DNA from: an uncultured Methylophaga sp.
GTDB taxonomy: Bacteria; Pseudomonadota; Gammaproteobacteria; GCF-002020875
Length of the DNA stretch: 64,000 nt
Direction of reading: 5' to 3'
NCBI GenBank assembly: GCA_937877715.1
Contig: CALEHW010000046.1
Coordinates: 89,690-153,689, forward strand
The translations under genes were made by a program, and so were the position numbers. The first letter of the stretch is position 1. Each line of letters begins with the position of its first letter. A model generated the notes under the pieces. That model made no database searches. It was given only the letters and a program-made list of their open reading frames with translations, and had not been told where the DNA came from. Below, piece after piece: positions 1,987-54,633 of this stretch.

Positions 1987-4263
1987 CTAAAACATCTGTC
2001 CCATACTAAACTGGAAGGGCTCAAGGTCATCCTCAGACTTCTCCCTTAACGGTATTGCCCAACTAAATGTCAGTGGTCCTACCGGGGAGAACCATTTAGC
2101 TGTTACCCCTGCTGAGGCACGCAATTTATCACCTAATTCACCTCCATTATTGGCGACTGTACCCATATCGACAAAACCACTTACCCGTGTGGACTCCACA
2201 TCTTTAAGGAATGGGACTGGGAGAATCACCTCAGCATTAAGTATTCCTTTGATGTTTCCACCAACTGCATCACCAGATGAATCAACAGGCCCAATTGAAT
2301 TGCCCTTGAATCCACGGACTGAACCCTCTCCACCTGCATAGTATCGACTAAAAAATGGCAATGTGTTCTGATCGCCATAACCATCACCAACTCCAATATT
2401 CCCCTTCAACATCATAGTGTAATCATCGGCAATTGGATAGAAGAAGTCGTGTCGATAATCTATTTTATAATATTCAATACCACCCGGTGCACCCATCTCT
2501 GCTGTGAGGCGCTGATAGCTACCCTGATCCGGGAACACCGCACGGTTACGGCTATCCCTACTCCAGCTTGCCGACAGCTCCAACACATTGAAGGATCCCC
2601 CCTCAGCATCTAGGAAAGTATCACACTCACTATTTGTTGATGCAGTTCCGCAGGTAGTATCACTCATAAATTGCGGCTCAAAACCAACGAATAGTTTTTC
2701 ATACTCACTGGTGGGAATCCCCAAATCCAGATTAGCGCTGAGTGAATCATAACTATAAGCACTCTCACTTCCGTTAGAGTCCTGCTTCTTCCGGAAATGT
2801 ACCCCCCCCCCTAAACTAATCCCATCATCGGTAAAATAGGGGTCTCTGTATCCCAATCCATAAGCTGTCTCACTATCGCCACTGTTGAATTCAACATCCA
2901 CACTCTTCCCTGACCCCATAAAGTTATTCTGCTGAAGGTTAAGATTCATCATCATGCCACCGGTCTGTGAGTACCCCATACCAACCATCATGCTTCCGGT
3001 TGATTGCTCCTTGACCTGATAATTAAGTTCTACCTTATCAGTCGTTCCTGCAACCGGCAGTGTCTCTACCGAGACATCTTCAAAATATCCAAGCTTTCGT
3101 ATACGGGTCTGGGAACGCTCTACCTCCTTGTTTGAGAATCGGCTCCCCTCATACTGGCGCATCTCTCTACGAATCACCAGATCCTGGGTCTTGGTATTCC
3201 CCACAATATTGACCCGATCCACATAGACCCGATTTCCAGGGTCGACAAAAAATGTCAGGTCCACCACGCTGTTCTCTTCATCCAGATCAGGAATCACATT
3301 GATATTGGCAAAGGCGTAACCATCCTCTCCAAGACGATCGGTCAACGCCTCGTTGACGGCCGCAATCTCCTTACGCGAGAAGTCATCACCACTCTTCATG
3401 ATGATCTTCTCCTCTAGCTCCTCCTCTGAAACCACCATCTTGCCATCCAGCCTGATCTCTCCCAAAGTAAATTTGCTGCCCTCGTTCATGTTTATAGTTA
3501 TGTATATCTGCTGTCTATCCGGGGTAATCGACACCTGAGCAGATTCAATCTCAAAATTAATGAAACCCCGATCCAGATACCAGGAACGCAGTGTCTCCAA
3601 GTCACCCGCTAGTTTCTGCCTGGAGTACCGATCATTCTTGGTAAAGAATGAGAACCAGCCCCCAGTATTCAGTTGAAATAGGTCTCTCAGATCATCGGTC
3701 TCAAAGGCCTGGTTACCGATTAGAGTTATCCGGCGAATTCTCGCGCTCTCCCCCTCCTTTACCTGAACCCTTACCGCAGAGCGATTACGTTCCAGAGGTG
3801 TAATGGTGGCCTCAATTTCAACACCATAACGGCCCATCCCCAGATATTGGCGCCGCAGCTCGGCCTCAATTTTGTCCAGTAGCGCCCGGTCCAGCACCCT
3901 CCCCTCTGACAGCCCGATACCCTTGAGACCCTCTTTGAGATCCTCAGTCTTGATAACCTTGTTGCCATCAATGGTGATATCTGCAATTGCTGGTCGTTCA
4001 ATCACCGAAATCAAGAGAATATCCCCATCCTGCTCCAGACGAACATCCTTGAAAAAGCCGGTCTTGAATAGCGCCTTGATTGCATCTGCCGATCTGCGTG
4101 AAGTCAGCTCATCCCCAACCTTCAGGGGGAGGTAGTTGAAGATGGTACCAGCCGCAATCCGCTGTAGCCCCTCTACCTTGATATCCTCAATTACAAATGG
4201 CTCAAAGGCCCATGATGTGATGGAGGAGAAGAACAGAAAAAGAGAAAAAACAATGCGTTGCAT
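1987..4263 (-). CDS. bamA: Outer membrane protein assembly factor BamA
   Basis: 758 aa with signal peptide, POTRA-like N-terminal repeats and a C-terminal beta-barrel ending ...FQFSMGQMF (aromatic terminal residue). Conserved rseP-bamA-skp order. Confidence 0.9.
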   Translation of the reverse strand: MQRIVFSLFLFFSSITSWAFEPFVIEDIKVEGLQRIAAGTIFNYLPLKVGDELTSRRSADAIKALFKTGFFKDVRLEQDGDILLISVIERPAIADITIDGNKVIKTEDLKEGLKGIGLSEGRVLDRALLDKIEAELRRQYLGMGRYGVEIEATITPLERNRSAVRVQVKEGESARIRRITLIGNQAFETDDLRDLFQLNTGGWFSFFTKNDRYSRQKLAGDLETLRSWYLDRGFINFEIESAQVSITPDRQQIYITINMNEGSKFTLGEIRLDGKMVVSEEELEEKIIMKSGDDFSRKEIAAVNEALTDRLGEDGYAFANINVIPDLDEENSVVDLTFFVDPGNRVYVDRVNIVGNTKTQDLVIRREMRQYEGSRFSNKEVERSQTRIRKLGYFEDVSVETLPVAGTTDKVELNYQVKEQSTGSMMVGMGYSQTGGMMMNLNLQQNNFMGSGKSVDVEFNSGDSETAYGLGYRDPYFTDDGISLGGGVHFRKKQDSNGSESAYSYDSLSANLDLGIPTSEYEKLFVGFEPQFMSDTTCGTASTNSECDTFLDAEGGSFNVLELSASWSRDSRNRAVFPDQGSYQRLTAEMGAPGGIEYYKIDYRHDFFYPIADDYTMMLKGNIGVGDGYGDQNTLPFFSRYYAGGEGSVRGFKGNSIGPVDSSGDAVGGNIKGILNAEVILPVPFLKDVESTRVSGFVDMGTVANNGGELGDKLRASAGVTAKWFSPVGPLTFSWAIPLREKSEDDLEPFQFSMGQMF

Positions 4264-6875: not shown

Positions 6876-7690
6876 CAGAGCCCTCCAGAGACAATCAGGA
6901 TGGAGAGAAATATCGGGGCAGCAGCAGTCAGACTATCCACCCGATCAAGTATCCCACCATGGCCAGGGATCAGATTGCCACTATCCTTCAGCCCTGCACT
7001 ACGTTTGTAACTGCTCTCCACAAGATCACCGACTACCGAGAATATGACTATGCCCACTACAGCTAACATGAACAGCGGCAGCCCCATACCTGACCACCCC
7101 ATATAGAGATAGGCGACGGATGCAAAAACAGCTGAGAAACCGATCCCCCCAAGCAGCCCCTCTATACTCTTGCCCGGGCTTACATTGGGAGCAAGTTTTC
7201 TGCTGCCAAAACTGCGCCCAACCAGGTAGGCACCGATGTCGGCGCTCCAGATCAACAGCAGCAGAAAAAATAGCAGCTCAACACCCTGCTCCTGGTGATG
7301 AATCACCTCCAGTGAGCGCCATGCTGGAATCAATACAAATATCCCGGCAATACGGCTTGTAACCGGGGCAAAGAGCCACCCTGTCCCCGCAGGAAAGTGG
7401 CGTAACCAGAGGAGCGCGCCCCACCACCAGAACAGAGCCGCCCCCAGCAGCCACTCCACCGAAATAAAACGACTTAAATAGAAGAGGAGAACCAACAACA
7501 CCGTATACCATAGGTGAGGCCAGAACATGGTCTGCCCGGAGAGTCGTCCCCACTCCCATGCAGCCGGAATCAGCAGTAGCGCAAGCAAAATCGAGAAATT
7601 ATCTCCACGCAGATAGAGCAGAGCTAGCAGTAGTAGAGGTCCCAACACCAACGTACTGATTGTGCGCTGCGCAAAGGAGGATAGTTTCAC
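6875..7690 (-). CDS. cdsA: Phosphatidate cytidylyltransferase CdsA
   Basis: 271-aa polytopic membrane protein with the C-terminal CTP-transferase signature region (SxxKRxxGxKDxGxxIPGHGGxLDRxDS). uppS-cdsA synteny. Confidence 0.85.
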
Positions 7691-8427
7691 TATTTGATAC
7701 CTCCACCTAACTGCTCACTTGTGCGCCCAAAACGGCGCTGCCGCCCCCCAAAGGAGGAGACCGCATCCTCTAGGGCAGAGCGATCAAATTCGGGCCAGAA
7801 AAGATCAGAGAAATAGAATTCACAATAGGCCATCTGCCACAAAAGGAAATTGCTGACCCGCTTCTCTCCCCCAGTACGGATAAAGAGCTCCGGCTCCGGG
7901 AGATCACTCAGAGTTATCTTCTGCTGCACCATCTCCTGCGTGATCTGCTCTGGATCCACTCTGCCTGCAGCCACCTCCACACAAAGCTGCCGTGTCGCTT
8001 CTGTTATATCCCAGCGCCCACCGTAGTTTGCTGCAATATTCAGCGACAACGTGCGATTATTCTTGGTCAACTCCTCAGACTCGGCAATGGCACTCTGCAG
8101 TTTTTCGGGGAACCTGCTGCGATCCCCAATAATGCGGAGACGAATCCCGTTCTTGTGAAGACGCTTGACCTCTCGTTTCAGGGATGACATGAAGAGATCC
8201 ATCAGAAAAGAGACCTCCTCCTGTGGCCGCTTCCAGTTTTCCGTACTGAAGGCAAACAGGGTAAGCGCCTCAACTCCCATATCAATACAGGCCTCAACAG
8301 AGGAGCGTACTCTCTCCACCCCGCGCTTGTGGCCCCAGAAACGCAGTCTATTTTGCTGACGCGCCCAGCGTCCATTGCCATCCATGACAATGGCTATGTG
8401 GCGTGGAACTTGCTGACCTGAAGACAC
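7690..8427 (-). CDS. uppS: Ditrans,polycis-undecaprenyl-diphosphate synthase UppS
   Basis: 245 aa with the conserved IAIVMDGNGRWA cis-prenyltransferase motif. Confidence 0.9.
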   Translation of the reverse strand: MSSGQQVPRHIAIVMDGNGRWARQQNRLRFWGHKRGVERVRSSVEACIDMGVEALTLFAFSTENWKRPQEEVSFLMDLFMSSLKREVKRLHKNGIRLRIIGDRSRFPEKLQSAIAESEELTKNNRTLSLNIAANYGGRWDITEATRQLCVEVAAGRVDPEQITQEMVQQKITLSDLPEPELFIRTGGEKRVSNFLLWQMAYCEFYFSDLFWPEFDRSALEDAVSSFGGRQRRFGRTSEQLGGGIK

Positions 8428-8449: not shown

Positions 8450-9007
8450 TCAGATCTCCATCAGATCGGCCTCTTTGGCCTGAATGGTCTGATCAACCTC
8501 AGCCACATAACGGTCTGTCAGACTCTGTACATCATCAATGGCACCATGCTCCTCATCCTCCGATATCTCTTTCTCTTTGAGCAACTCCTTGAAGTCACTA
8601 TTTGCATCACGGCGAATATTGCGGATTGCAACCTTGGCTGACTCCCCCTCATGCTTGACAACCCGAACCAAGTCGCGGCGACGCTCCTCAGTCAATGGCG
8701 GCAAGGGAATACGAATTATAGTTCCTGCAGTTGCTGGATTAAGCCCCAGATCGGCCTCCATGATAGCCTTCTCTATCGGCTGAACCATGCTCTTCTCCCA
8801 AGGAACAACCGTCAAGGTGCGAGAATCAGTTGCATTAACGTTAGCAACCTGATTCAGCGGGGTAAGGTTCCCATAGTAGTCCACGCTCACCTGCTCCAGC
8901 AGATTTGGATGGGCACGCCCCGCCCTTAGCTTGGAGAGTTCCCCCCTCAGTGACTCAACACTCTTTCCCATGCGCTCTTCCGCATCCTGTTTTATCTCAT
9001 TAATCAT
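8450..9007 (-). CDS. frr: Ribosome recycling factor
   Basis: 185 aa with the conserved RRF sequence pattern. pyrH-frr synteny. Confidence 0.9.
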
Positions 9008-9733
9008 TCACAACTCCTTTGTGACCAATGTGCCTTCATCTTCGTTCAACAGGGCGACACGCAGCCCTCCAGGACGCATCATATTGAATACTCTAAGCGG
9101 CATATTATGCTCTCGACAGAGAACAATTGCAGTCAAATCCATCACCCCAAGCCGCTTTTCAAGCACCTCTTCATAACTGATACGGCTAATCAAAGTAGCA
9201 GTTGGATCCTTCACCGGATCGGCACTGTAAACCCCATCCACTTTGGTTGCCTTCATCACTACATCCGCCCCCACCTCAATCCCCCTGAGGCAGGCTGCAG
9301 TATCGGTGGTAAAGAATGGATTCCCCGTCCCCGCCGCAAACAGCACCACCTCCCCCCTCTTCAGGGCAGCAACTGCCACGTGGGTACTGTATTCATCACA
9401 AACTTTGGATATCTTGAAGGCTGACATGGTACGTGCCGCCACTCCCGCCTGGTTCAGGGCATCACGCACGGCAATGGCATTCATCACCGTAGCCAGCATC
9501 CCCATCTGGTCACCGGTTACCCGACTGACGCCAACCTCTTCCAGACTAGCTCCGCGACAGTAGTTTCCTCCGCCAATCACTATGGCAACCTGAACCCCAA
9601 GCTCGGTAATAGCCGTTATCTCCTCTACCATCTGCGCCAGAACAACAGGATCGACACCCTGACAACCCTCCCCCATCAGCGCCTCACCACTGAGTTTTAG
9701 TAGAATTCGACGATATATTGACTGCTCTGACAT
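9008..9733 (-). CDS. pyrH: UMP kinase PyrH
   Basis: 241 aa with the [13 protein letters not shown]... amino-acid-kinase fold N-terminus typical of PyrH. Sits between tsf and frr. Confidence 0.9.
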
Positions 9734-9802
9734 CTCAATTTCCCTCTCTTTCCGGAGCTGTAATTGGCTATGTTCACAAACCCAAGATTATACCTATAAC
9801 CC

Positions 9803-9835
9803 AAAAAAAAGCCCTCCATCAGGAAGGCTTTTTAA
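9803..9835 (-). terminator. Putative rho-independent terminator downstream of tsf
   Basis: GC-rich inverted repeat (agccctcc ... ggaaggct, one G-U wobble) flanked by A/T runs on both sides. It lies 20 bp past the tsf stop codon on the transcribed (minus) strand. Confidence 0.5.
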
Positions 9836-9857
9836 CCGACTACAGATGACAGATAAC

Positions 9858-10739
9858 CTACCCTTGAACCTGGGCCATCACCTCATCTGCAAAATTTTCC
9901 TCTTTCTTCTCAATACCCTCACCAACCTCGAAACGGTCAAATGAGACAATGGTTGCACCATTGGCATCCATCAGTTTGGCAACAGTCTGATCCGGGTCCT
10001 TCACAAAAGGCTGGCCCAACAAGGTCACCTCATTAACAAACTTCTTCATCCTGCCTATTACCATCTTCTCGATAATATTTTCAGGCTTGCCACTCTCGGC
10101 CGCCTGGGCAGAGAATATCTCTCTCTCCTTATCCAAAACCTCGACAGGAATATCCGCCTCGGAAAGAGCTACTGGACGACTTGCAGCGACATGCATGGAG
10201 ACATCCTTAGCCAACACGGCATCACCGCCCTGTAGCGCAGTCATTACTCCGATACGACCACCATGCGAGTAGAATCCGATCACACCATCATCTGAGTCGA
10301 TGATGGAGAAACGACGTACAGTCATATTCTCACCGAGCTTTGCAATCAACTCCTGACGACGCACCTCAACAGTGGTCGATCCACCGGAGAGATCCATATC
10401 ATTAAGAGCGGCCACATCAGCTGGCGACCCAGAGAGAACTGTTGCTGCGATCTGGTTGGCAAACTCGATAAACTCATCACCTTTTGCGACAAAATCGGTC
10501 TCACAGTTAACCTCAACCATAACCCCGCAGGAGCCATCATCACTAACACCAATCGCCACAATACCATCTGCCGCAACCCGTGACGCCTTCTTGTCAGCCT
10601 TGGCCAGACCAGACTTTCTCAGGTTCTCAATTGCCGTATCTATATCGCCATCAGTCTCTACCAGAGCCCTCTTGCACTCCATCATTCCGGCACCGGTACG
10701 CTCACGCAGTTCCTTTACCTGACTCGCTGTAATTGCCAT
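9858..10739 (-). CDS. tsf: Elongation factor Ts
   Basis: 293 aa with N-terminus [26 protein letters not shown] (UBA-like EF-Ts signature). rpsB-tsf synteny. Confidence 0.9.
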
Positions 10740-43782: not shown

Positions 43783-44877
43783 ATGAGTACAACTCCAGAT
43801 GACAGAGGCCAGATTCGTGAAATCCGCATAAACCCTATTGTTCCCAGTGAATCTGTACTGGTGGCAACCGCCCGCAGTATGCGGCCGATCAAGGAGGAGC
43901 AGCAGGCCCCACGGGATACCCGTAGCCATGTGGAGAGCTGCCCTTTCTGCAAGGGAAATGAGGAGAAGACCCCACCTGCAATTGTTACTTATCCGGACGA
44001 TGAGTCATGGAAAATTCGTGTTGTAGAGAACCTCTTTCCTGTCCTTGGCAAGGCTAGTGATGAATCTCAGAAAAACTTGAATTTTGGTTTGCAGTCAGCA
44101 ATTGAGGGATATGGTCACCATGAGGTGATGATCGATCACAGCAACCATGGGGCTGTAGTCAATGAGATGAGTGAGGAGCATCTAACCTTACTGTTTGGTG
44201 CCTATCAGGAGAGGATGCGTAAGCTGTATGAGAGTGAGAGAATTCGCTTTGTCCTGGTTTTTAAAAATTACGGCCCTGCCGCTGGTGCCAGCATCCGCCA
44301 CACGCATAGCCAGATTATTGCCATGCCGGTGGTACCACAGAATGTCCATGACGAGGTAATAAACAGTGCTGCTCACTACCAAAAACATCATCAATGCATA
44401 TTCTGCACCCTGATTGACGAGGCCCTCACCTTCGAGACCACAATATATGATCGTCACTCAGGTGAGGTGCGCAGAAAAATAAATGTGGGGCAGTATGTAG
44501 TCGACAGATCAGACCACTTTATCGCTATCAAGCCATTTGCCAGTCGCTTTGAGTGGGAAGTGCATATTTTGCCACTGGTTCATCAAAGTGATTATCTGAA
44601 CTCCTCTGCAGAGGAGTTGGCAGACTTCGCAAAAATTGTAAAACGGACTATGCAGAGACTCGATGGGGTGCTTGGTGGAGTACAGTACAACTACTTCCTC
44701 CACTCAATCCCCCACAATGAGGATTGCGAAAGCTGTCACGCAAGTTTCCACTGGCACCTCGAGATCGTACCTCGCACCAGCATCCCTACAGGATTTGAAC
44801 TTGGGTCAGGCCTCTTTGTAAATACCATAAGCCCGGAACAGGCTGCTGAACAGCTACGTAATACAGTAGTGGGGTAA
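43783..44877 (+). CDS. GalT-family (HIT superfamily branch III) nucleotidyltransferase, a candidate APS:phosphate adenylyltransferase (ADP-sulfurylase) or Ap4A phosphorylase-like enzyme
   Basis: 364 aa with a CPFCKGNE zinc-knuckle motif in the first half, the GalT/Apa-type active site RHTHSQII (HxHxQ) and a degenerate second half-domain (HWHLEIVPR). Confidence 0.7.
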   Translation: MSTTPDDRGQIREIRINPIVPSESVLVATARSMRPIKEEQQAPRDTRSHVESCPFCKGNEEKTPPAIVTYPDDESWKIRVVENLFPVLGKASDESQKNLNFGLQSAIEGYGHHEVMIDHSNHGAVVNEMSEEHLTLLFGAYQERMRKLYESERIRFVLVFKNYGPAAGASIRHTHSQIIAMPVVPQNVHDEVINSAAHYQKHHQCIFCTLIDEALTFETTIYDRHSGEVRRKINVGQYVVDRSDHFIAIKPFASRFEWEVHILPLVHQSDYLNSSAEELADFAKIVKRTMQRLDGVLGGVQYNYFLHSIPHNEDCESCHASFHWHLEIVPRTSIPTGFELGSGLFVNTISPEQAAEQLRNTVVG

Positions 44878-44966: not shown

Positions 44967-45380
44967 ATGACTACAACAACCAAGATGAGTGATGAAGAGT
45001 GCCGCTTTTGTAATGCCAGCCCAAATCGACGGATTTTGATTGAAGGGAAGTACGGCTTTGCAGCACTGGATCGCCATCCAGTCAATGAGGGGCATTTCCT
45101 GGTGATCCCCTACCGCCATTTTCCAGATTACTTTGACATAGGTGATGAAGAACGTGAGGAGTTATGGTCACTTGTGGCTCAGGGGAAAAAATTAATCGAT
45201 GAGAAGCACAACCCAGACGGCTATAACATTGGCATCAATGTAGGCGAGTCTGCTGGCCAATCGGTACCCCACCTACATATCCACGTTATTCCACGCTATA
45301 AAGGTGACGTAGAAACCCCCAAAGGTGGGGTCCGTGGAGTTGTTCCAGAACAAAAACTCTATACCCTTCAACCAGATTAA
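44967..45380 (+). CDS. HIT-family (Hint-like) nucleotide hydrolase/transferase
   Basis: 137 aa with a canonical histidine triad PHLHIHVIPR and an N-terminal CRFC zinc motif. Lies directly downstream of the GalT-family gene. Confidence 0.75.
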   Translation: MTTTTKMSDEECRFCNASPNRRILIEGKYGFAALDRHPVNEGHFLVIPYRHFPDYFDIGDEEREELWSLVAQGKKLIDEKHNPDGYNIGINVGESAGQSVPHLHIHVIPRYKGDVETPKGGVRGVVPEQKLYTLQPD

Positions 45381-45429
45381 ATCGGAGATAGAGGTTACGC
45401 GAAAAACTGTCTTATTTTAGGCGCACGAA

Positions 45430-45464
45430 AAAAATCCCAGCTCACCACGAGCTGGGATTTTTTA
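45430..45464 (+). terminator. Rho-independent terminator (bidirectional) after the HIT gene
   Basis: aaaaaaatcccagctc-accacg-agctgggattttttatt is a perfect 9-bp GC-containing stem flanked by A-run and T-run. Confidence 0.65.
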
Positions 45465-45484: not shown

Positions 45485-45643
45485 TTACGGTTTCTTGGGT
45501 GTAGTGTATGGAACCTCTTTCTGGAACGGTTCCCAGATTGTTTCATAACCAACAAAGCCCTGCTCAGTCGGCGCTTTCTGGCGGGTTGTCAGGAAACGAC
45601 TATGCCCTGTAGGGACCGTTGGTTTTGTGTTTTCTTCGCTCAT
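45485..45643 (-). CDS. Unannotated 52-aa ORF (MSEENTKPTVPTGHSRFLTTRQKAPTEQGFVGYETIWEPFQKEVPYTTPKKP)
   Basis: ATG preceded by a good Shine-Dalgarno (AGAGGTGA, 6 nt spacer). Below the ORF-track length cut-off. No recognisable family. Confidence 0.3.
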   Translation of the reverse strand: MSEENTKPTVPTGHSRFLTTRQKAPTEQGFVGYETIWEPFQKEVPYTTPKKP

Positions 45644-45796: not shown

Positions 45797-46318
45797 TTAC
45801 TCCGTCAATTCTACCATGTTCTCAATTTCTGGCTCTGGTTCGATCGGTCCACCCTCTTTGATCTCCTCATCCGTTGCATCACGCACGGTGAGAATCTCGA
45901 GCTTGAACAGAAGGTCCCGACCACAAAGTGGGTTGTTGCCATCAATAGTCAGACTCTTCTCATCGATTCGGGTAACCAGAAAGTTCTTGGTATCACCTTT
46001 ATCATTCTCCATGACAATGGTGGTTCCAACCTCATGGTACTCCTCAGGAACATTCTCCAGGTAATCAGTGATCACTAGAGACTCATCACGCTCGCCGTAG
46101 AGCAGGCTCCCATCAATGGGAACCTCAATAACCTCGCCAATAGAGCATCCCTCCAGGGCCTCCATAATGGGCTCAGAGAGAACATCATTGTGGCCATGAA
46201 TGTAACCAATCGGGAATTCCACCGCTGCCAACACCGCCCCACTCTTCTGGTCTAGAACCTGGTAGGTCAGCTCAACAAGCTTGTTTTTCTGAATCGTCTC
46301 ACTCATAACAGTCTGCAC
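45797..46318 (-). CDS. slyD: FKBP-type peptidyl-prolyl cis-trans isomerase, SlyD-like (lacks the His-rich tail)
   Basis: 173 aa. YIHGHNDVLSEPIMEALEGCSIGEVI aligns with SlyD YLHGHGSLISGLETALEGHEVGDKF. The IF-domain insertion and DGNNPLCGRDLLFKLEILTVRDATDEEI align with SlyD DGNHMLAGQNLKFNVEVVAIREATEEEL. Confidence 0.75.
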   Translation of the reverse strand: MQTVMSETIQKNKLVELTYQVLDQKSGAVLAAVEFPIGYIHGHNDVLSEPIMEALEGCSIGEVIEVPIDGSLLYGERDESLVITDYLENVPEEYHEVGTTIVMENDKGDTKNFLVTRIDEKSLTIDGNNPLCGRDLLFKLEILTVRDATDEEIKEGGPIEPEPEIENMVELTE

Positions 46319-46320
46319 AA

Positions 46321-46671
46321 CTAGAAAATAGAGGCACTAAAGATCTTGACCCCATCCTTTTCATAGCCTAGTACCAATCTGCCAAGCCACTCACCCTTCT
46401 TCTCGGTACTTCGCACCCTAAACAGAACAGTGACATGCTCGTCACGACGAATCATTCCCAGATAGTCTGACTCCTCGGAGAGGTTTCGTGCCAGTTGACT
46501 TCTGGCAAACTGCTTTCCAACCTCCATCTCATTGAGACCAAACAAAAGATCCTGGGAGAAGTGACGGGTAAACATTCCATACTCACCCTCATTGGAATAC
46601 TTAATCAAGTCATTCCACATTGGAAGTCCAACTTCCAAAATCTCCTCATCACTATCGTCAATAATATTCAT
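46321..46671 (-). CDS. Hypothetical 116-aa acidic protein downstream of aprA, translationally coupled to the SlyD-like gene
   Basis: Protein-like composition. Its stop abuts the SlyD-like start. No family recognised. Confidence 0.5.
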   Translation of the reverse strand: MNIIDDSDEEILEVGLPMWNDLIKYSNEGEYGMFTRHFSQDLLFGLNEMEVGKQFARSQLARNLSEESDYLGMIRRDEHVTVLFRVRSTEKKGEWLGRLVLGYEKDGVKIFSASIF

Positions 46672-46722
46672 TCAAAAATCCTGAATTCCTAAACTTACAG
46701 CCATCACTATCCTCGGACAGCC

Positions 46723-46769
46723 CAATAAAAAGATCAACAAACGAGCATTACTACGATCGAATGTTGATC
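46723..46769 (-). terminator. Possible partial terminator/attenuator after aprA
   Basis: On the transcribed strand: 8-bp stem gatcaaca/tgttgatc with a 22-nt loop, followed by TTTTTATT, 27 bp after the aprA stop. Confidence 0.35.
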
Positions 46770-46795
46770 CCTTATTAAACTAGTCCATCAGAGGA

Positions 46796-48688
46796 TTAGG
46801 CTGCCTCGCCTTCCTGTCCCTCATGATCCTCATCGAACAGGTGATACAGTGGAGCCTTCTCCATAGTGTACTCACCAGTCTTTGGATCACGGCGAGAAAC
46901 TGTCAGAACATGCCAGTTCTTATCATCCAGCTTCATTGCGTCACCACGGTAGTAGTAACCAGGCCAGCGAGTTTCCTTACGGAACAGGGTGTGCTGCATT
47001 ACAGACTCGGAGGCAAGCAGACGATGCTTCAGCTCCCATGCGCGCAGCAGCTCATGAATATCAGAAGCAGCAATCTTCTCCATATCCTCTTCCAGAGTCT
47101 TCATCTTCTTCAGACCGATGTTCAGCAGCTTATCGTTAGTCATGTAGTTCACCGTTACACCACCAGCGTACTCGTCCATCATCTTCTGCATACGATCAAG
47201 ACCTTGACGTGGGTTGATGTAGTTAGGGTTAACAGTTCCAGCAACGATATCGTTACGGTAAACTTTATAGTGCTCCATTGGTTTGTAGATCTCTTCCTTG
47301 CGATCATTGATCTGCTTCTCAGAGATGGTAATTCCATTGGCCTTACCATCATCGATGTACTTGCAAGCAGCCTTGGCAGCCAAACGACCTTCGGTGAATG
47401 AACCAGAAGAGAACGCATGTGGTGTACCACCAACCGCATCACCAGCACCAAACAGACCTTCTACAGTAGTCATACGGTTGTAACCCCAGAAATACTCATC
47501 AGGAGAAACATCCTCAGGACCAGAACACCATGCACCACAACCGGTAGCGTGTGAACCCATTACATAAGGCTCAGACGTAGTCAGCTCAGGGTTCTCATAC
47601 TTTGGATTTACATCAGTTGCAGCCCAAAGTACAGCCTGACCAACTGTCATACCCAAGAAGTTGTGCCAGCCAATCTCCTCAAGGTGAGGATCCTGGAATG
47701 AGTGCATAGTAACCATGTGAATCGGGCCACGTCCTGCATTGACCTCGTTGATCAGAGCATGGTTACGCAAACATGTTGGGATTGGCTTATGAGACAAGTG
47801 CTGGTTTTCTGTATCCAGATATTCCTTACCAACCATCTCACTCAGAGCCGGGAACCACTTGGACTCATACTCCTCACCATTACAGTTCTGGGTGTAAGTC
47901 TTAAGGTGTAGGAAGTAAGCACCAACCGGGCCGTAACCATCCTTGAATCGAGCAAGTACGATACGGTTTTCCATCTGGGTCATCTTCGCACCAGCCTGAA
48001 TCATCAGACCATATGCAGATCCAGAAGACCACGGTGCATACCATACACGTCCAGCACCCTCACCAACGGAGCGAGGCTTGAATATGTTAGATGCACCACC
48101 AGCACCAACAATAACAGTCTTGGACTTGAATACGTGGTAGTTACCAGTACGTACGTTGAAACCAACAGCACCAGCAACACGATTCTCTTTGCTCTCATCC
48201 ATCAGCAGGTGAGTAACACAGATACGGTTGTAGACCTTGTCAGCAGACTTGGTAGCAGCCTCAGCCACAAGCGGCTTGTAGGACTCACCGTGAATCATGA
48301 TCTGCCAGCGACCCTCACGCAGATAGGCGCCAGTCTTCGAGTCACGCATGATAGGCATGCCCCACTCCTCGAACTGGTGTACTGCGGAGTCAACATGACG
48401 CGCCATGTCAAAAGCAAGATCCTCACGAACCATTCCCATCAGGTCCATACGTGCGTAGCGAACGTGATCTTCCGGATTATTCTCTCCGAAACGTGTTCCC
48501 ATGTAGCAGTTAATTGCATAAAGACCCTGTGCAACTGCACCGGAACGGTTGATATTTGCCTTCTCAGCAATAACGATTTTCTTGTCTTGGCCCCAGAAGC
48601 GCGCCTCCCAGGCTGCACCAGTACCGCCGAGCCCTGCGCCCGCGACTAGAACATCGATATTGTCTTCTACGATAGTTTTGTAAGCCAT
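46796..48688 (-). CDS. aprA: Adenylylsulfate (APS) reductase alpha subunit
   Basis: 630-aa FAD flavoprotein with a dinucleotide-binding N-terminus (VLVAGAGLGGTGAAWEA) and fumarate-reductase-family fold. Immediately preceded by aprB, so the stop and start are tightly coupled. Confidence 0.9.
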   Translation of the reverse strand: MAYKTIVEDNIDVLVAGAGLGGTGAAWEARFWGQDKKIVIAEKANINRSGAVAQGLYAINCYMGTRFGENNPEDHVRYARMDLMGMVREDLAFDMARHVDSAVHQFEEWGMPIMRDSKTGAYLREGRWQIMIHGESYKPLVAEAATKSADKVYNRICVTHLLMDESKENRVAGAVGFNVRTGNYHVFKSKTVIVGAGGASNIFKPRSVGEGAGRVWYAPWSSGSAYGLMIQAGAKMTQMENRIVLARFKDGYGPVGAYFLHLKTYTQNCNGEEYESKWFPALSEMVGKEYLDTENQHLSHKPIPTCLRNHALINEVNAGRGPIHMVTMHSFQDPHLEEIGWHNFLGMTVGQAVLWAATDVNPKYENPELTTSEPYVMGSHATGCGAWCSGPEDVSPDEYFWGYNRMTTVEGLFGAGDAVGGTPHAFSSGSFTEGRLAAKAACKYIDDGKANGITISEKQINDRKEEIYKPMEHYKVYRNDIVAGTVNPNYINPRQGLDRMQKMMDEYAGGVTVNYMTNDKLLNIGLKKMKTLEEDMEKIAASDIHELLRAWELKHRLLASESVMQHTLFRKETRWPGYYYRGDAMKLDDKNWHVLTVSRRDPKTGEYTMEKAPLYHLFDEDHEGQEGEAA

Positions 48689-49173
48689 TAGTGATATACC
48701 CCTTCTTTCATGATTAGGCCATTGGACTCAAGGGTGTGCAAACCACCTTCATCGAGACGAATGTATTTTGGTTCGTTAAACAGTAGCAGGTCATTATCAC
48801 GATGCTCCTGAGTTGGAGCAGGGACATCAGCAAGCTGTGGAATTTCCTGTCCCCATGGCTTTGTTGTAATAGGCGCCAGCAGATTCAGATCAGTCTCACC
48901 ATTGCGAGACTTGATGCGCCATGCGATAACACCCTTCTCCTCATCACGGTCCACACGTACAGAGTGACCCAGAGGGGCAAAGTCGGCATAACCACGAACA
49001 TCAATTGCATGGTGAGGACATGCCTTCACGCATGAGTAGCACTCCCAACACATATTAGGCTCAATATTGTAGGCACGACGATATTTATCATCGATATGCA
49101 TGATATCTGATGGACAGATATCAACACAGTGTCCACAACCGTCGCAACGGGTCATATATACAAAAGTAGGCAT
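48688..49173 (-). CDS. aprB: Adenylylsulfate reductase beta subunit (2x[4Fe-4S])
   Basis: 161 aa with two ferredoxin motifs (CDGCGHCVDICP and CWECYSCVKACP) and the AprB-specific C-terminal tail. Confidence 0.9.
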   Translation of the reverse strand: MPTFVYMTRCDGCGHCVDICPSDIMHIDDKYRRAYNIEPNMCWECYSCVKACPHHAIDVRGYADFAPLGHSVRVDRDEEKGVIAWRIKSRNGETDLNLLAPITTKPWGQEIPQLADVPAPTQEHRDNDLLLFNEPKYIRLDEGGLHTLESNGLIMKEGVYH

Positions 49174-49213
49174 AATCTTTCCTTTTTGTTTAGATTAATC
49201 TTGAATCTTAAAA

Positions 49214-50035
49214 TCAGTAGTGGCTAGGCTCTTCGCGCTTAATGCCAAGACCCATGTTGGATGGGTTTTTACCCATGTACTCAGGGATATCTGGAAATCT
49301 TGCATGCGTAGCAGCAGCAGACAGGTCAGGTATCTCAGGCAGATTCTCATTAGAACCATCAGCATGAACTGTACGCTTGTTATAAGCCGCAGCAGGCTTG
49401 AAGAACATATGGGAGAACTTAGACCAGTAAACGCCGCCGAATAGTGAAGCTGTAGAAATGATCACTAGGGCAAACCATGCTCCGGTGCCACCACCAGTTA
49501 GTGACCAACCTATAGCTGCTGTTGATGTAGCCATCAGCGAGAGGCTGAACATATCCCTTCTAAGCTTGATATTTGTCCATGTATTACCTTCTGCAGCCAC
49601 ATCAACCTTGAATACAAACCAGAACCACCAGCTACCTACGAACAAACTGATAGCACCCAGATGCCAGAACAAGTTCAATGTTGCATCGGCAGCATTATCA
49701 CCAAAAATCATCATTGCAGTTGCTGCATTAAATGAGATAAAACCATACATGGTCAACAGATGTACCAGCCTACGAGTCGGGTTACAGAACTCTCCAGACA
49801 GCGCCACATCAGTAACAACAGTCTTGACCAGAATTGAGGCAGCAGGAGCAGTTTTTGTTGCATTCTGCTTATCTTTTGCAGCTTTCTCGAAGAAGTACTG
49901 AGCACTCTTCTTGTGCATCATATCCAGCACAGTCATTACAATAACTAGCGCAATCATTACGATCACATACGTCTGCATAGACGCATATGTGATGCCGGCA
50001 TCCACTAATGACTGGATAGGGGTATTACTTAACAT
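49214..50035 (-). CDS. aprM: APS reductase membrane anchor AprM-like protein
   Basis: 273 aa with about 5 predicted TM helices and a hydrophilic C-terminal tail. It sits between sat and aprB, as aprM does in sat-aprMBA loci of purple sulfur bacteria. Confidence 0.65.
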   Translation of the reverse strand: MLSNTPIQSLVDAGITYASMQTYVIVMIALVIVMTVLDMMHKKSAQYFFEKAAKDKQNATKTAPAASILVKTVVTDVALSGEFCNPTRRLVHLLTMYGFISFNAATAMMIFGDNAADATLNLFWHLGAISLFVGSWWFWFVFKVDVAAEGNTWTNIKLRRDMFSLSLMATSTAAIGWSLTGGGTGAWFALVIISTASLFGGVYWSKFSHMFFKPAAAYNKRTVHADGSNENLPEIPDLSAAATHARFPDIPEYMGKNPSNMGLGIKREEPSHY

Positions 50036-50091
50036 AGTGTTTTCCTTTTAAAATTAAATAAAAATAAACATTAACAATAATCAAGAACGAC

Positions 50092-51309
50092 TTACTGGGC
50101 AGAGTGCCCCTTCATCTCAATCTTTACATTCTCATCATCACTAAGACTTGCATAGTAGTCCTGAAGCACCTTGGCAACCTCTGGACGACTGAAGGTAGCA
50201 GGAAGCTCCTCACCCTCAGACAACATCTTGCGTACCTTGGTACCAGACAACAGAATACGATCATCCTTGCCATGAGGACAGGTCTTCATAGAAGCCATTC
50301 CGTCACAGGCATTACACCAGAAGGTCCAGTCGATCTTCAGTGGCTTAGTCTCCAGTGCGCCCTCAGGGATTTCGTCAAAGATCGACTGTGCATCAAAGGG
50401 GCCATAAAAATCGCCGACACCAGCGTGGTCACGACCAACAATCAGGTGCGAACAGCCGTAGTTCTGGCGGAATACGGCGTGCAACAGCGCCTCACGGGGG
50501 CCTGCAAAACGCATATCCAGCGGATAACCTGCCTGTACAACACTGTTGGGAACAAAATAGTTATCAATCAGAGTCTGGATCGCCTCAGAGCGAACCTCTG
50601 CAGGGATATCACCCTTCTTCAGCTTACCCAGTGTGGAGTGAACCAGAACACCGTCCAGAGTCTCTACCGCAATTTTGGCAAGATACTCATGAGAGCGATG
50701 CATTGGGTTACGGGTCTGGAATGCCGCAATAGTATTCCAACCCTTTGACTCGAATAACGCACGGGTCTGCTCAGGTGTCATGAATTGCTCACCATAAGTC
50801 TCGGGGAATCCACCCAGAGAGAGGACCTTGATTGGACCGGCAAGATTCACCTCTCCCTGATCCATAACCATCTGCACACCTGGATGCTCCAGATCAGTGG
50901 TCTTGTATACAGACATGCACTCATGCTCTTTATCAATACCGTATTTCTCGGTAACTGTCATGGTTGCAACAATATTCCCGCTTTCCTCATCAAACAGAGC
51001 AACATCAGAACCCTCATGGGTGTTGTCGGCAGTGGCACTGTCAGTAGAGATGGTTACCGGAATTGGCCAGAACAGGCCGCTCTCCATCTTGTATGAGTCA
51101 CAAACACCCTTCCAGTCAGCGTGGTTCATGAAACCGTCAAGTGGGGTAAACCCACCGATACCCAGCATATAGATATCACCAGCCTCACGTGAGGTAATCG
51201 TTACCTTGGGCAGCGTCTCTGCGCGTGCCTTCTCATCCTCGAGGGCGATCCCCTCAAGCAGTAGCGGCTTCAACTCACCGCCACCATGTGGTTTAACTAA
51301 ATTTGACAT
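50092..51309 (-). CDS. sat: Sulfate adenylyltransferase (dissimilatory-type ATP sulfurylase)
   Basis: 405 aa with ATP-sulfurylase motifs [11 protein letters not shown] and GRDHAGVG. Heads the sat-aprM-aprB-aprA operon. Confidence 0.9.
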
Positions 51310-51762: not shown

Positions 51763-52149
51763 TCACTTATCCTGTTTGGATTGGTAATCCTCAACCGCAG
51801 CCTTGATGGCATCCTCCGCCAGCACAGAACAGTGCACCTTAACCGGTGGTAGAGCCAGCTCCTCAGCAATATCAGAATTCTTGATCTGCTGCGCCTCCTC
51901 AAGGGTTTTCCCCTTCACCCACTCTGTCACCAGTGAGCTTGAGGCGATAGCAGAACCACAACCATAAGTCTTGAACTTTGCATCCTCGATGACACCATTC
52001 TGATCTACCTGGATCTGCAGTTTCATCACATCACCGCAGGCGGGAGCACCTACCATACCAGTACCTACATCACCTGCATCCTTATCCATCACCCCAACGT
52101 TTCTTGGGTTCTCGTAATGGTCCATCACCTTGTCACTGTAAGCCATCAA
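51763..52149 (-). CDS. IscU/NifU-like Fe-S cluster scaffold protein (standalone)
   Basis: 128 aa with the three scaffold cysteines in APACGDVMKL, a YGCGSAIAS block and a C-terminal HCSVLAEDAIKAA, typical of IscU. Confidence 0.8.
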   Translation of the reverse strand: MMAYSDKVMDHYENPRNVGVMDKDAGDVGTGMVGAPACGDVMKLQIQVDQNGVIEDAKFKTYGCGSAIASSSLVTEWVKGKTLEEAQQIKNSDIAEELALPPVKVHCSVLAEDAIKAAVEDYQSKQDK

Positions 52150-52326: not shown

Positions 52327-53868
52327 TTGCAGAATCCGGCTGTTACTATGTACAGTCATCCAATGCACTCTAAACACCGCCTCTCTCTCCTCACTCAGAC
52401 AGGAATTATCATTGGGATAATCAGCCTGCTGGCAGTCATCGGCATTAGCAGCTCGGTTTTTATCACCCAGACCATTCAAGGTGCAGGAACCACCATCAAC
52501 ACCTCCGGCACCCTGCGCATGTTCGCCTACAAAATCGCCACCCAGATGATGCGGGATCAGCGTGAGGAGGATCCCACCTCAACTGACATACGCGAGCTGA
52601 TCAGTCGCTTTGAATCCCAACTCAACCACCCATCTCTGCAACACTCCATTCCGCAACCATCACAGAACCCGAAAGAATCAGACACTGTTGACTTACATCC
52701 GCTCTACACACTTTACAACTCTATCCAGTGGCGCTGGCATGAGGAGATTCAACCACTACTGCTAAGCTATGCAGCACTTCTGGATATGGAGAGCGGCGAG
52801 GAGTCCATGGGCAAGCTCAAGCACACCATCCACAACTCCTACCAGCAAAGCTACCTGTCGATAATTGATGATTTCGTATTTGACATCAACAACATGGTTA
52901 AACTGATCGAAGAGCAGACTGAGTCCAGAATTGAGCTACTACGCAACATTGCGTATGTATCACTACCCCTACTGCTACTCTCCATTCTGGCGGCACCATT
53001 TCTACTCTACTACAGGGTTCTGGTTCCATTAAAAGATCTACTTGAGATCTCGCAACATGTACGCCAACGCGACTTCTCCCGCCAGGCTAAATATACTCGT
53101 AAGGATGAACTGGGCGAACTAGCCAGAGCCTTCAACCTGATGAACTCAGACCTCTCTGCCACCTATGCCGAGCTGGAAGAGCGGATTATGGAGAAGACCC
53201 AAGCCCTGATTGATGAGTCCAACAGGATCACCCTTATGGAGGAGCGTAATATCATCGCCCAGGAGCTACACGACTCCCTAGCCCAATCCATCTTCTATAT
53301 CAACATTCAGATTAGCCGAATCAAGACCCTGATAAGAAGAGAAGCCCCGCCAAGCCAGCTACTCCCCATCATTTATGAGTTTGCGACAACCAATGATGAG
53401 GCCGATCGTCAGCTACGGGAGCTGATCTCCACCTTCAGAATCAAAATCAACCCCGAGGGGCTGACAGCCGCAATCAACGAAATTATAACCAAATATATGG
53501 GGAGAGAATCTGTAACACTAAAGTTTTACAACCATATTCCCGATTTCTCCTTCACCCACAGCGAGGAGGTCAACATGATTCAGATTACCCAAGAGGCGAT
53601 CTCCAACATCATCAAACATGCCAACGCAACCTCCGGCACCATTGTGCTTGACCACGATGGTGAGAACAACCTAGTGACACTGACTATTGATGATGACGGG
53701 GGCGGAATCCCCGAAAACCCTTACCGCCATAACCATTTTGGTCTCAAAAACATGGAGGAGCGCGCAGAAAACATCAATGGGAATATCTCAATTTACCAAC
53801 AAGCAGATGGCGGCACCAGGATAGAGCTTGATTTCAACCCAGCACTAACCCAGGAGAGCAGGCTGTAG
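52327..53868 (+). CDS. narX: Nitrate/nitrite sensor histidine kinase NarX-like
   Basis: Periplasmic sensor domain with a P-box-like TSGTLRMFAYKI, two TM helices, HAMP, an H-box ELHDSLAQ and a HATPase_c domain. Confidence 0.8.
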   Translation: MQNPAVTMYSHPMHSKHRLSLLTQTGIIIGIISLLAVIGISSSVFITQTIQGAGTTINTSGTLRMFAYKIATQMMRDQREEDPTSTDIRELISRFESQLNHPSLQHSIPQPSQNPKESDTVDLHPLYTLYNSIQWRWHEEIQPLLLSYAALLDMESGEESMGKLKHTIHNSYQQSYLSIIDDFVFDINNMVKLIEEQTESRIELLRNIAYVSLPLLLLSILAAPFLLYYRVLVPLKDLLEISQHVRQRDFSRQAKYTRKDELGELARAFNLMNSDLSATYAELEERIMEKTQALIDESNRITLMEERNIIAQELHDSLAQSIFYINIQISRIKTLIRREAPPSQLLPIIYEFATTNDEADRQLRELISTFRIKINPEGLTAAINEIITKYMGRESVTLKFYNHIPDFSFTHSEEVNMIQITQEAISNIIKHANATSGTIVLDHDGENNLVTLTIDDDGGGIPENPYRHNHFGLKNMEERAENINGNISIYQQADGGTRIELDFNPALTQESRL

Positions 53869-53982: not shown

Positions 53983-54633
53983 ATGAGTGAATTTGAATCA
54001 AAATCTATCTCTCTGCTACTGATTGATGACCACCCACTTATACGCAAGGGCATTATCCAACTACTGGAGCTCCACGAGGGGATTCAGCTAGCGGGCGAGG
54101 CAGATGGTGGTGCCGATGGGCTGAAACTGATCGAGAAAAAAGAGCCAGATATGGTGCTGCTTGATCTCAACATGAGCGAGATGGATGGCCTCACCACCCT
54201 GAAAAAAATCAAGAAGAGATGGCCGAATATTCGGGTGGTGATCCTTACAGTCTCCGACAACCCACAGAATATTATCCAGGCATTTCGTAACAAGGCAGAT
54301 GGCTACCTGCTGAAAAATGCAGATCCGGAGAAGATCGTGGACCATTTGATCCAGGTAATGCACGGGGTGACAATTGTCAGTCCTGAGATCGCCAAGATCC
54401 TTGCCCGGTCACGCACCGATAAAAATAATCTGCCGGAACTCAATCTAACCCGCCGCGAGGAGGAGGTGTTGCGCCTAATTGCCGAGGGGCTCTCCAACCA
54501 GGATGTTGGAAATCGTCTTGGTATTTCGGTCTGGACCGCCAAGGTACATGCCAAACACATCCTCAAGAAACTTGGTCTCAATAGCCGTAATGAACTGATC
54601 GTCTGGGCTATCCGAGAGGGGATGACCAGCTAA
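53983..54633 (+). CDS. narL: Nitrate/nitrite response regulator NarL-like (REC plus LuxR-type HTH)
   Basis: 216 aa with a receiver domain (LLIDDHPLIRKG ... DLNM) and a C-terminal LuxR/FixJ HTH (LTRREEEVLRLIAEGLSNQDVGNRLGISVWTAKVHAKHILKKL). Confidence 0.85.
   Translation: MSEFESKSISLLLIDDHPLIRKGIIQLLELHEGIQLAGEADGGADGLKLIEKKEPDMVLLDLNMSEMDGLTTLKKIKKRWPNIRVVILTVSDNPQNIIQAFRNKADGYLLKNADPEKIVDHLIQVMHGVTIVSPEIAKILARSRTDKNNLPELNLTRREEEVLRLIAEGLSNQDVGNRLGISVWTAKVHAKHILKKLGLNSRNELIVWAIREGMTS

Follow-up and report, generated by a model that had tools for sequence, protein, structure and literature searches.

Introduction

Adenosine 5'-phosphosulfate (APS) reductase is central to the sulfur cycle, and how its AprM-type (lineage I) form is coupled to the membrane has been a question since aprM was first noticed. 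Published descriptions of the sat-aprMBA operon of Allochromatium vinosum (Alvin_1118 to Alvin_1121) and of the lineage-I apr loci of sulfur oxidisers end at aprA (PMC3779200; PMC2211403), and sulfate reducers and lineage-II sulfur oxidisers carry aprBA-qmoABC loci (PMC3333476). Here, we report the apr locus of an uncultured Methylophaga sp., contained in a 64,000-nucleotide (nt) stretch of DNA (contig CALEHW010000046.1, positions 89,690 to 153,689; the window), in which the cluster runs past aprA into genes for an uncharacterised protein of 116 amino acids (aa) with an NTF2-like fold (hyp116), a SlyD-type FKBP peptidyl-prolyl isomerase (FKBP), and a 52-aa protein (sm52). The functional linkage of hyp116 and FKBP to apr is well supported. 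On balance, we favour the reading that aprM-aprB-aprA-hyp116 is one conserved functional unit, extended by the FKBP and 52-aa genes in proteobacterial sulfur oxidisers, and that these genes encode dedicated accessory components of the AprM-type APS reductase.

The window holds the same four genes in the same order as the A. vinosum operon, with sat co-directional and aprM directly before aprBA. It differs from that description, and from those of other lineage-I loci, in that the conserved unit continues with hyp116, FKBP, and sm52, and in that sat is the variable member. The A. vinosum genome itself has this layout, with sat (Alvin_1118), AprM (1119), AprB (1120), and AprA (1121) followed by a 116-aa hypothetical protein (1122), a putative peptidyl-prolyl isomerase (1123), and another hypothetical protein (1124). 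An earlier note on the window had placed hyp116 and FKBP outside the canonical sat-aprMBA description, correctly so for the descriptions in the searchable literature, which stop at aprA; no description of the genes downstream of aprA was found there, key subscription papers lying outside its coverage. A parallel with the aprBA-qmoABC loci is that partner genes come after those for APS reductase, the partners in those loci linking AprBA to the membrane; the window differs in having no Qmo, with AprM before aprBA and an NTF2-like protein after it.

Results

The minus strand of the window carries seven co-directional open reading frames (ORFs) from 51309 to 45485, with the following features (basis of each assignment after the semicolon).

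50092 to 51309, minus strand: sat, dissimilatory ATP sulfurylase (405 aa); NF003166, Pfam PUA_2 and ATP-sulfurylase
49214 to 50035, minus strand: aprM, membrane anchor of lineage-I APS reductase (273 aa); hydrophobic segments and position
48688 to 49173, minus strand: aprB, 2x[4Fe-4S] beta subunit (161 aa); TIGR02060, Pfam APS-reductase_C
46796 to 48688, minus strand: aprA, flavin adenine dinucleotide (FAD) alpha subunit (630 aa); TIGR02061
46711 to 46794, minus strand: intercistronic RNA hairpin between aprA and hyp116; fold and conserved motif
46321 to 46671, minus strand: hyp116, uncharacterised NTF2-like-fold protein (116 aa); no curated family
45797 to 46306, minus strand: SlyD-type FKBP with an insert-in-flap (IF) domain, peptidyl-prolyl isomerase/chaperone without metal-binding tail (169 aa); SlyD alignment and model
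45485 to 45643, minus strand: sm52, conserved hydrophilic protein (52 aa); homologue clusters and linkage
45428 to 45463, both strands: strong bidirectional intrinsic terminator; CCCAGCUC/GAGCUGGG stem between an A-run and a U-run

The earlier note had described six minus-strand genes running head to tail, from sat to FKBP; all six ORFs are in place, and sm52 extends the run by a seventh. The stop-start overlap it had reported for aprB and aprA is a shared TAATG.

A species scan (one genome each) found relatives of hyp116 in at least 580 species, and 81 loci were fetched (taxonomy of metagenome-assembled genomes as deposited). The FKBP gene directly follows hyp116 in all 81 hyp116-anchored sulfur-oxidiser loci, at a gap of 4 to 27 nt in most of them; aprA lies upstream of hyp116 in 79, the remaining two contigs being too short to tell, and aprM-aprB precede aprA wherever the contig extends far enough. 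These loci span alpha-, beta-, and gammaproteobacterial sulfur oxidisers, among them Thioalkalivibrio, Thiobacillus, Thiocapsa, Thiocystis, Halochromatium, Sedimenticolaceae, Woeseiaceae, Arenicellales, Hyphomicrobium, and Rhodospirillales. The same gene order was recovered in five of five look-ups anchored on FKBP (two) or sm52 (three). Depending on the locus, sat is upstream, divergent, downstream, or not within 10 kb, and because its position shifts, the invariant unit is aprMBA-hyp116-FKBP and not sat-aprMBA. Comparative genomics thus bears out a conserved linkage of hyp116 and FKBP to apr, joined for hyp116 by 80 of 80 marine contigs described below. A search of plasmids for AprA gave only two distant matches.

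Identity to the window proteins is 89% for AprA, 84% for AprB, 72% (median) for hyp116, 62% for FKBP, and 51% for AprM among the sulfur oxidisers; the corresponding values for the marine clade are 72% for AprA, 66% for AprB, 48% for hyp116, and 40% for AprM, with the FKBP gene absent. In both clades, therefore, hyp116 is more constrained than AprM, the accepted partner of the enzyme.

The apr locus of the window is of the lineage-I (AprM) type, with aprM directly before aprB and qmoABC absent. Sat passes two curated models (NF003166, 521.5 bits against a cut-off of 387; TIGR00339, 406.9 bits against 322.95), and AprB and AprA each pass a curated equivalog (TIGR02060, 201.5 bits against 135.65; TIGR02061, 1070.7 bits against 641.75). 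The aprM product is an integral-membrane protein with at least four hydrophobic segments and weak matches to QmoC/TcuB membrane domains, and no curated model for it was found among the libraries searched. The gene ends 40 nt before aprB, adjoins aprB on the upstream side in every related locus (46 to 88% identity), and occupies the position of aprM in the loci of Thiobacillus, Thiocystis, Thioalkalivibrio, and Chromatiaceae; its product is 46 to 58% identical to that of the same-position gene in most sulfur-oxidiser loci and up to 88% identical in the closest relatives.

Two loci carry additional elements near hyp116. An IS3-type insertion (81-aa and 276-aa transposase ORFs) lies between the aprA hairpin and hyp116 at 8548 to 10001 of locus L024 and accounts for the only aprA-hyp116 distance above about 310 nt. 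A gammaproteobacterial contig (L077) holds two hyp116-FKBP pairs (2509 to 3350 and 7286 to 8118), with one hyp116 directly after aprA (52% identical to that of the window) and the second 5 kb downstream (72% identical).

At least 572 marine metagenome contigs of 30 to 36% GC carry a hyp116 subfamily that is further removed (about 48% identity), and 80 contigs (L090 to L169) were analysed. A hyp116 homologue directly follows aprA in all 80, at a median gap of 6 nt and with a 14- to 17-nt overlap in 23 of 72; there is no aprA-hyp116 spacer, aprM-aprB lie upstream of aprA, and neither the FKBP gene nor sm52 is present on any of the 80 contigs. Because hyp116 is kept, and kept translationally coupled to aprA, in streamlined genomes lacking FKBP, it is better seen as a core component than as a transient chaperone. 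The clade may be SAR11-like, a guess from GC content and sample origin.

Genes downstream in the marine clade encode a TauE/SafE sulfite-exporter-family permease, a HIT protein, and a thiamine diphosphate (ThDP) enzyme (for example, 4833 to 13208 of L093), the HIT genes usually lying 1.1 to 3 kb downstream of hyp116, on about 30 of the 80 contigs. The ThDP enzyme is possibly sulfoacetaldehyde acetyltransferase, and such neighbours would fit sulfite derived from organosulfonates.

Every homologue of FKBP begins MSETIQ, which places its start at the ATG at 46306 (169 aa), 14 nt after the hyp116 stop and without a Shine-Dalgarno sequence; a GTG at 46318 was rejected as the start on the same grounds. 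The translational coupling that had been proposed for these two genes is matched by their closeness and not by any stop-start overlap. The protein aligns end to end with residues 3 to 150 of Escherichia coli SlyD (phmmer, E = 1.3e-18, 33% identity), and its model matches Thermus thermophilus SlyD (Foldseek, E = 7e-15) as well as E. coli SlyD, SlpA, and archaeal FKBP-IF proteins. The FKBP domain is interrupted by an insert-in-flap chaperone domain, and from the structural matches we infer a two-domain prolyl isomerase and chaperone. Motifs in common with E. coli SlyD (YxHG, YG-x-x-DE-x-LV, and DGN-x-x-L-x-G) predict peptidyl-prolyl isomerase/holdase activity.

The FKBP plus insert-in-flap architecture, YxHG, and DGN-x-L-x-G are common to the window protein, SlyD (E. 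coli and T. thermophilus), and SlpA/FkpB. It differs from SlyD in being encoded inside an operon of enzyme genes rather than alone, in a nearly invariant Cys within the family-specific motif DGNNPLCGR, and in having no metal tail. Its C-terminal tail (EEIKEGGPIEPEPEIENMVELTE) is short and acidic, and in an alignment of 18 family members with E. coli SlyD, all 18 stop no more than about 20 residues past the FKBP domain and have no His/Cys runs, against a tail of 46 residues in E. coli SlyD. The score against the NCBIfam SlyD equivalog (NF008008) is 67.7 bits, below the cut-off of 174, and Pfam FKBP_C was not matched even at E ≤ 1. Because of this score, the missing Pfam match, the short acidic tail, and the motif of its own, the protein is not an orthologue of SlyD. 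The earlier description of it as a SlyD-type FKBP metallochaperone is retained as to the SlyD-type FKBP-IF and dropped as to the metallochaperone, and a nickel- or metal-binding SlyD was rejected for want of a metal tail. FKBP is strongly acidic (pI 4.2), more so than hyp116.

Two Chromatiales contigs (L060, 165 to 3367; L066, 11 to 3242) carry a second, lineage-II-like aprBA, 41 to 43% identical to that of the window, with neither aprM nor hyp116 adjoining. It is followed by a convergent second FKBP paralogue (48 to 52% identity) that has the DGNNPLCG motif and no metal tail. Because this paralogue adjoins an aprBA lacking aprM and hyp116, AprBA itself is suggested as the client of FKBP. Loci of the Thiocapsa/Thiohalocapsa type (L033, 11759 to 12262; L036; L071) also have this paralogue, just beyond sm52. 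A precedent for such a client is that SlyD of E. coli and Helicobacter pylori binds IscU, IscS, and the 2x[4Fe-4S] protein OorD (PMC10653786). Because SlyD binds IscU in E. coli, an orphan IscU encoded upstream of sat in the window may be relevant.

The sm52 gene has a GAGGTG Shine-Dalgarno sequence and encodes a hydrophilic protein of 52 to 53 aa across its family. Its homologues form 173 clusters, all annotated 'hypothetical', with a mean column identity of 77%, and sequence searches of Pfam and NCBIfam returned no family. Of the 81 loci, 71 have it no more than 10 kb from hyp116 and 40 have it no more than 500 nt from the FKBP stop; its strand varies, as does the side of the cluster on which it lies. 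In each of the three look-ups anchored on it, including the complete genome of Thiothrix anitrata, it was next to the FKBP gene of an aprMBA-116-FKBP cluster. Some hyp116 homologues have 50-residue N-terminal extensions, which were considered as fused sm52 and rejected, being AprA C-termini or unrelated sequence.

In the window, aprA and hyp116 are separated by a 124-nt spacer holding the hairpin core GATCAAC(24 nt)GTTGATC at 46732 to 46769, followed by TTTTTATT. The arms (GAUCAAC, 46763 to 46769; GUUGAUC, 46732 to 46738) and the U-run (46724 to 46731) lie within a longer imperfect stem. Folded as RNA, the region has a minimum free energy of -42 kcal/mol (z = -4.2), and none of 200 shuffles folded as well; the hairpin is therefore a real structure. 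Where the earlier note had a weak hairpin plus T-run, the hairpin and the T-run stand and the weakness does not. Across 75 aprA-hyp116 spacers, the median length was 149 nt and the median z was -3.6, and the motif A-run, GRYCAAY, 4- to 26-nt loop, RUUGRYC, U-run was present in 36, usually ending 50 to 60 nt before the hyp116 ATG. A genome-wide repeat was rejected, as the strict motif occurs once in the window and the 1.33 Mb of loci hold only three further sites. Sequence variation at stem positions 2, 3, and 7 keeps the bases paired, the states being limited to U-A, U·G, C-G, A-U, G·U, and G-C. With the 24 distinct hairpins read in the sense direction, the counts are 257 for Watson-Crick pairs, 28 for G·U pairs, and 27 for mismatches, against 257, 1, and 54 in antisense; this 28:1 G·U bias argues that the hairpin works at the RNA level, on the apr transcript.

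No Rfam family matched the region. The only strong terminator of the run follows sm52 (45428 to 45463; -26.3 kcal/mol, z = -5.5) and also faces a convergent HIT gene. A promoter/terminator scan found no promoter-like site in the aprA-hyp116 spacer, and it missed both hairpins because their U-runs pair with upstream A-runs. With a stable stem-loop and a U-run on the transcribed strand, the spacer structure has the make-up of a rho-independent terminator or attenuator, and it resembles a terminator that attenuates or an element that stabilises 3' ends. The spacers have two side features. In a subgroup (L003, L005, L014, L020, L044, and L047), GCUAUAGAG occupies the Shine-Dalgarno position, 7 to 8 nt before the start of hyp116. 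In many, a further hairpin, GC-rich and variable in sequence, lies between aprA and the conserved hairpin.

Intercistronic stem-loops that set differential expression within operons include the hairpins of the Rhodobacter puf operon and attenuating intrinsic terminators. The apr structure is likewise a stable hairpin with a U-run between genes for abundant structural proteins and downstream accessory genes, and it differs in a stem sequence (GAYCAAC/GUUGRUC) conserved across families. In the favoured reading, the hairpin would end or stabilise most aprMBA transcripts and so set the ratio of aprMBA to the downstream genes, read-through giving lower expression of the accessory genes; translation of FKBP would be coupled to that of hyp116 across the 14-nt gap.

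Such sub-stoichiometric expression in sulfur oxidisers, suggested by a terminator-like hairpin upstream, is what would be expected if hyp116 and FKBP were both purely transient maturation chaperones outside the working enzyme, as the earlier note proposed; FKBP does come from a chaperone family, and the close spacing of the two genes in most loci agrees. We nevertheless consider this unlikely. Marine hyp116 is found without FKBP, and its overlapping or abutting of aprA suggests near-equimolar synthesis, and conservation above that of AprM would be unusual for a transient factor.

The hyp116 family comprises 1579 clusters at 90% identity, nearly all of 116 aa; at 50% identity it shrinks to 347 representatives, including many fragments. 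An alignment of 24 members, drawn from three proteobacterial classes, has 54 invariant columns out of 116. The earlier note's acidic protein of no known family is only mildly acidic (pI 4.8), and is indeed without a family: 21 diverse members scanned gave nothing below E = 0.003 (Pfam) or 0.01 (NCBIfam), and a profile search of the PDB gave nothing below E = 0.97. The predicted structure is an NTF2-like alpha+beta cone. Its likeness to the NTF2-like (cystatin-like/SnoaL-like) superfamily is in fold only, with identity of 17% or less, no known catalytic motif found in hyp116, and no curated family match.

This fold is typical of ligand-binding proteins and enzymes, so hyp116 might instead bind or convert a small molecule (APS, adenosine monophosphate, or sulfite), for instance by passing sulfite on to AprA, or APS on to Sat or a HIT enzyme. 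The many invariant polar or charged residues (K24, N27, N47, E48, E50, K53, Q54, R75, R76, H79, E94, R98, Y103, and E104), of which the RR pair at 75-76 is retained even by distant members, point the same way, as do HIT-family and TauE/SafE sulfite-exporter genes nearby in both clades. We hold this to be quite unlikely, since sequence comparison links hyp116 to none of the enzymatic NTF2 families, catalytic residues like those of the known families were not identified in it, and its tight coupling is to aprA specifically, whereas sat and HIT positions vary.

Two predicted members of the family are of separate interest. P0129 (167 aa) starts at an internal Met in the C-terminus of AprA and continues into a hyp116 homologue with no stop codon between them; either AprA and hyp116 are naturally fused here, or the protein is an artefact of sequencing or gene calling. 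P0182, a distant member (about 34% identity; 690 to 1040 of L089, a 1.2-kb contig), adjoins a ParE/PhdYeFM toxin-antitoxin pair, and for this reason the most divergent members may be unlinked to apr; contigs carrying distant homologues were otherwise too short to be of use.

Discussion

Gene context suggests a maturation or folding role for hyp116 and FKBP. In the reading that we favour, of a conserved aprM-aprB-aprA-hyp116 unit, hyp116 would be an NTF2-like cone protein and a core, obligate partner of the AprM-type enzyme; its likeliest part would be that of an assembly adaptor or small accessory subunit, helping AprBA to assemble on AprM or to dock to it. FKBP, as a clade-specific folding helper of SlyD type, would serve AprBA as a specialised prolyl isomerase and holdase. 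Among possible clients, apo-AprB would be the most plausible: this ferredoxin-like 2x[4Fe-4S] subunit has a long tail, and FKBP might hold it during iron-sulfur (Fe-S) loading and pairing with AprA.

Array data from A. vinosum bear on this in both directions. On pyrite, Alvin_1118 to Alvin_1124 are all down (0.15- to 0.56-fold; PMC11267869 Table S2). On elemental sulfur, sat-aprMBA falls about 10-fold, with Alvin_1122 at 0.47 (not significant) and Alvin_1123 at 1.03; because these two genes do not show the 10-fold fall, downstream expression is at least partly independent. The data agree with a partial boundary at the hairpin and are indirect as to termination.

Besides this partial independence, several points weigh against a dedicated accessory unit. 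It presumes that hyp116 and FKBP bind APS reductase or are needed for its maturation, and an NTF2-like fold does not speak to function. Purified lineage-I APS reductases have been described as alpha/beta enzymes with no 13-kDa subunit. Distant hyp116 homologues (25 to 35% identity) can sit elsewhere, for example beside a ParE/Phd pair. The linkage census, being anchored on hyp116, FKBP, or sm52 and not on aprM or aprA, is a one-way test.

That hyp116, FKBP, and sm52 form a transcription unit of their own, of general use in stress or housekeeping, with FKBP simply being the cell's SlyD and the unit staying beside apr through shared horizontal transfer or co-regulation and not by a direct functional tie, would suit the partly uncoupled expression on elemental sulfur, the varying strand and side of sm52, and the 'SlyD' label of FKBP in public annotations, but is very improbable given an adjacency that is invariant over three proteobacterial classes while sat and other neighbours shuffle, a spacer with no promoter-like site, an FKBP below the SlyD equivalog cut-off with a family-specific motif and no metal tail, an FKBP paralogue adjoining a second aprBA locus, and the retention of hyp116 in streamlined marine genomes.

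Returning to the conserved unit, a more specific and tentative form of it, which we regard as possible and still doubtful, would make hyp116 a hitherto overlooked fourth component of the AprM-type APS reductase, docking AprBA onto AprM and required for electron flow between enzyme and quinone pool, both in lithotrophic sulfur oxidisers and in abundant marine heterotrophs that oxidise sulfite from organosulfonates, with FKBP and the 52-aa protein as a dedicated assembly line. Unnamed as a family, better conserved than AprM, and never found apart from aprA in the samples, hyp116 is an obvious testable candidate for the missing partner. Its association with aprA spans purple sulfur bacteria, Thiobacillus, and a very abundant low-GC marine clade, and it could be used as a compact marker of AprM-type loci in metagenomes. 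Heterologous production of the lineage-I enzyme may need co-expressed hyp116, FKBP, and sm52. The FKBP subfamily would be one of few SlyD-type chaperones encoded within the operon of a specific Fe-S/flavin enzyme.

Neighbouring genes

A stand-alone gene for the Fe-S scaffold IscU (51763 to 52149, minus strand; TIGR01999, 229.6 bits) lies 453 nt upstream of sat, with neither iscS nor other isc genes beside it. The order iscU-sat-aprM is also found in the two closest relatives, L002 and L011 (95% and 92% identity).

Two genes on the plus strand converge on the cluster, one for a GalT-like HIT-superfamily protein (364 aa; GalP_UDP_transf, DUF4921; 43783 to 44877) and one for a small HIT protein (137 aa; 44967 to 45380), and they share the terminator of the apr run. 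In several sulfur-oxidiser loci, HIT homologues are encoded no more than 10 kb from apr. These proteins are candidate enzymes for an alternative to the Sat reaction, by phosphorolysis or hydrolysis of APS.

Beyond iscU and divergent from the apr cluster is a two-component pair of the NarX/NarL type (52327 to 53868 and 53983 to 54633, both plus strand), made up of a PilJ-HAMP-HisKA_3-HATPase sensor and a regulator with receiver and LuxR/GerE domains.

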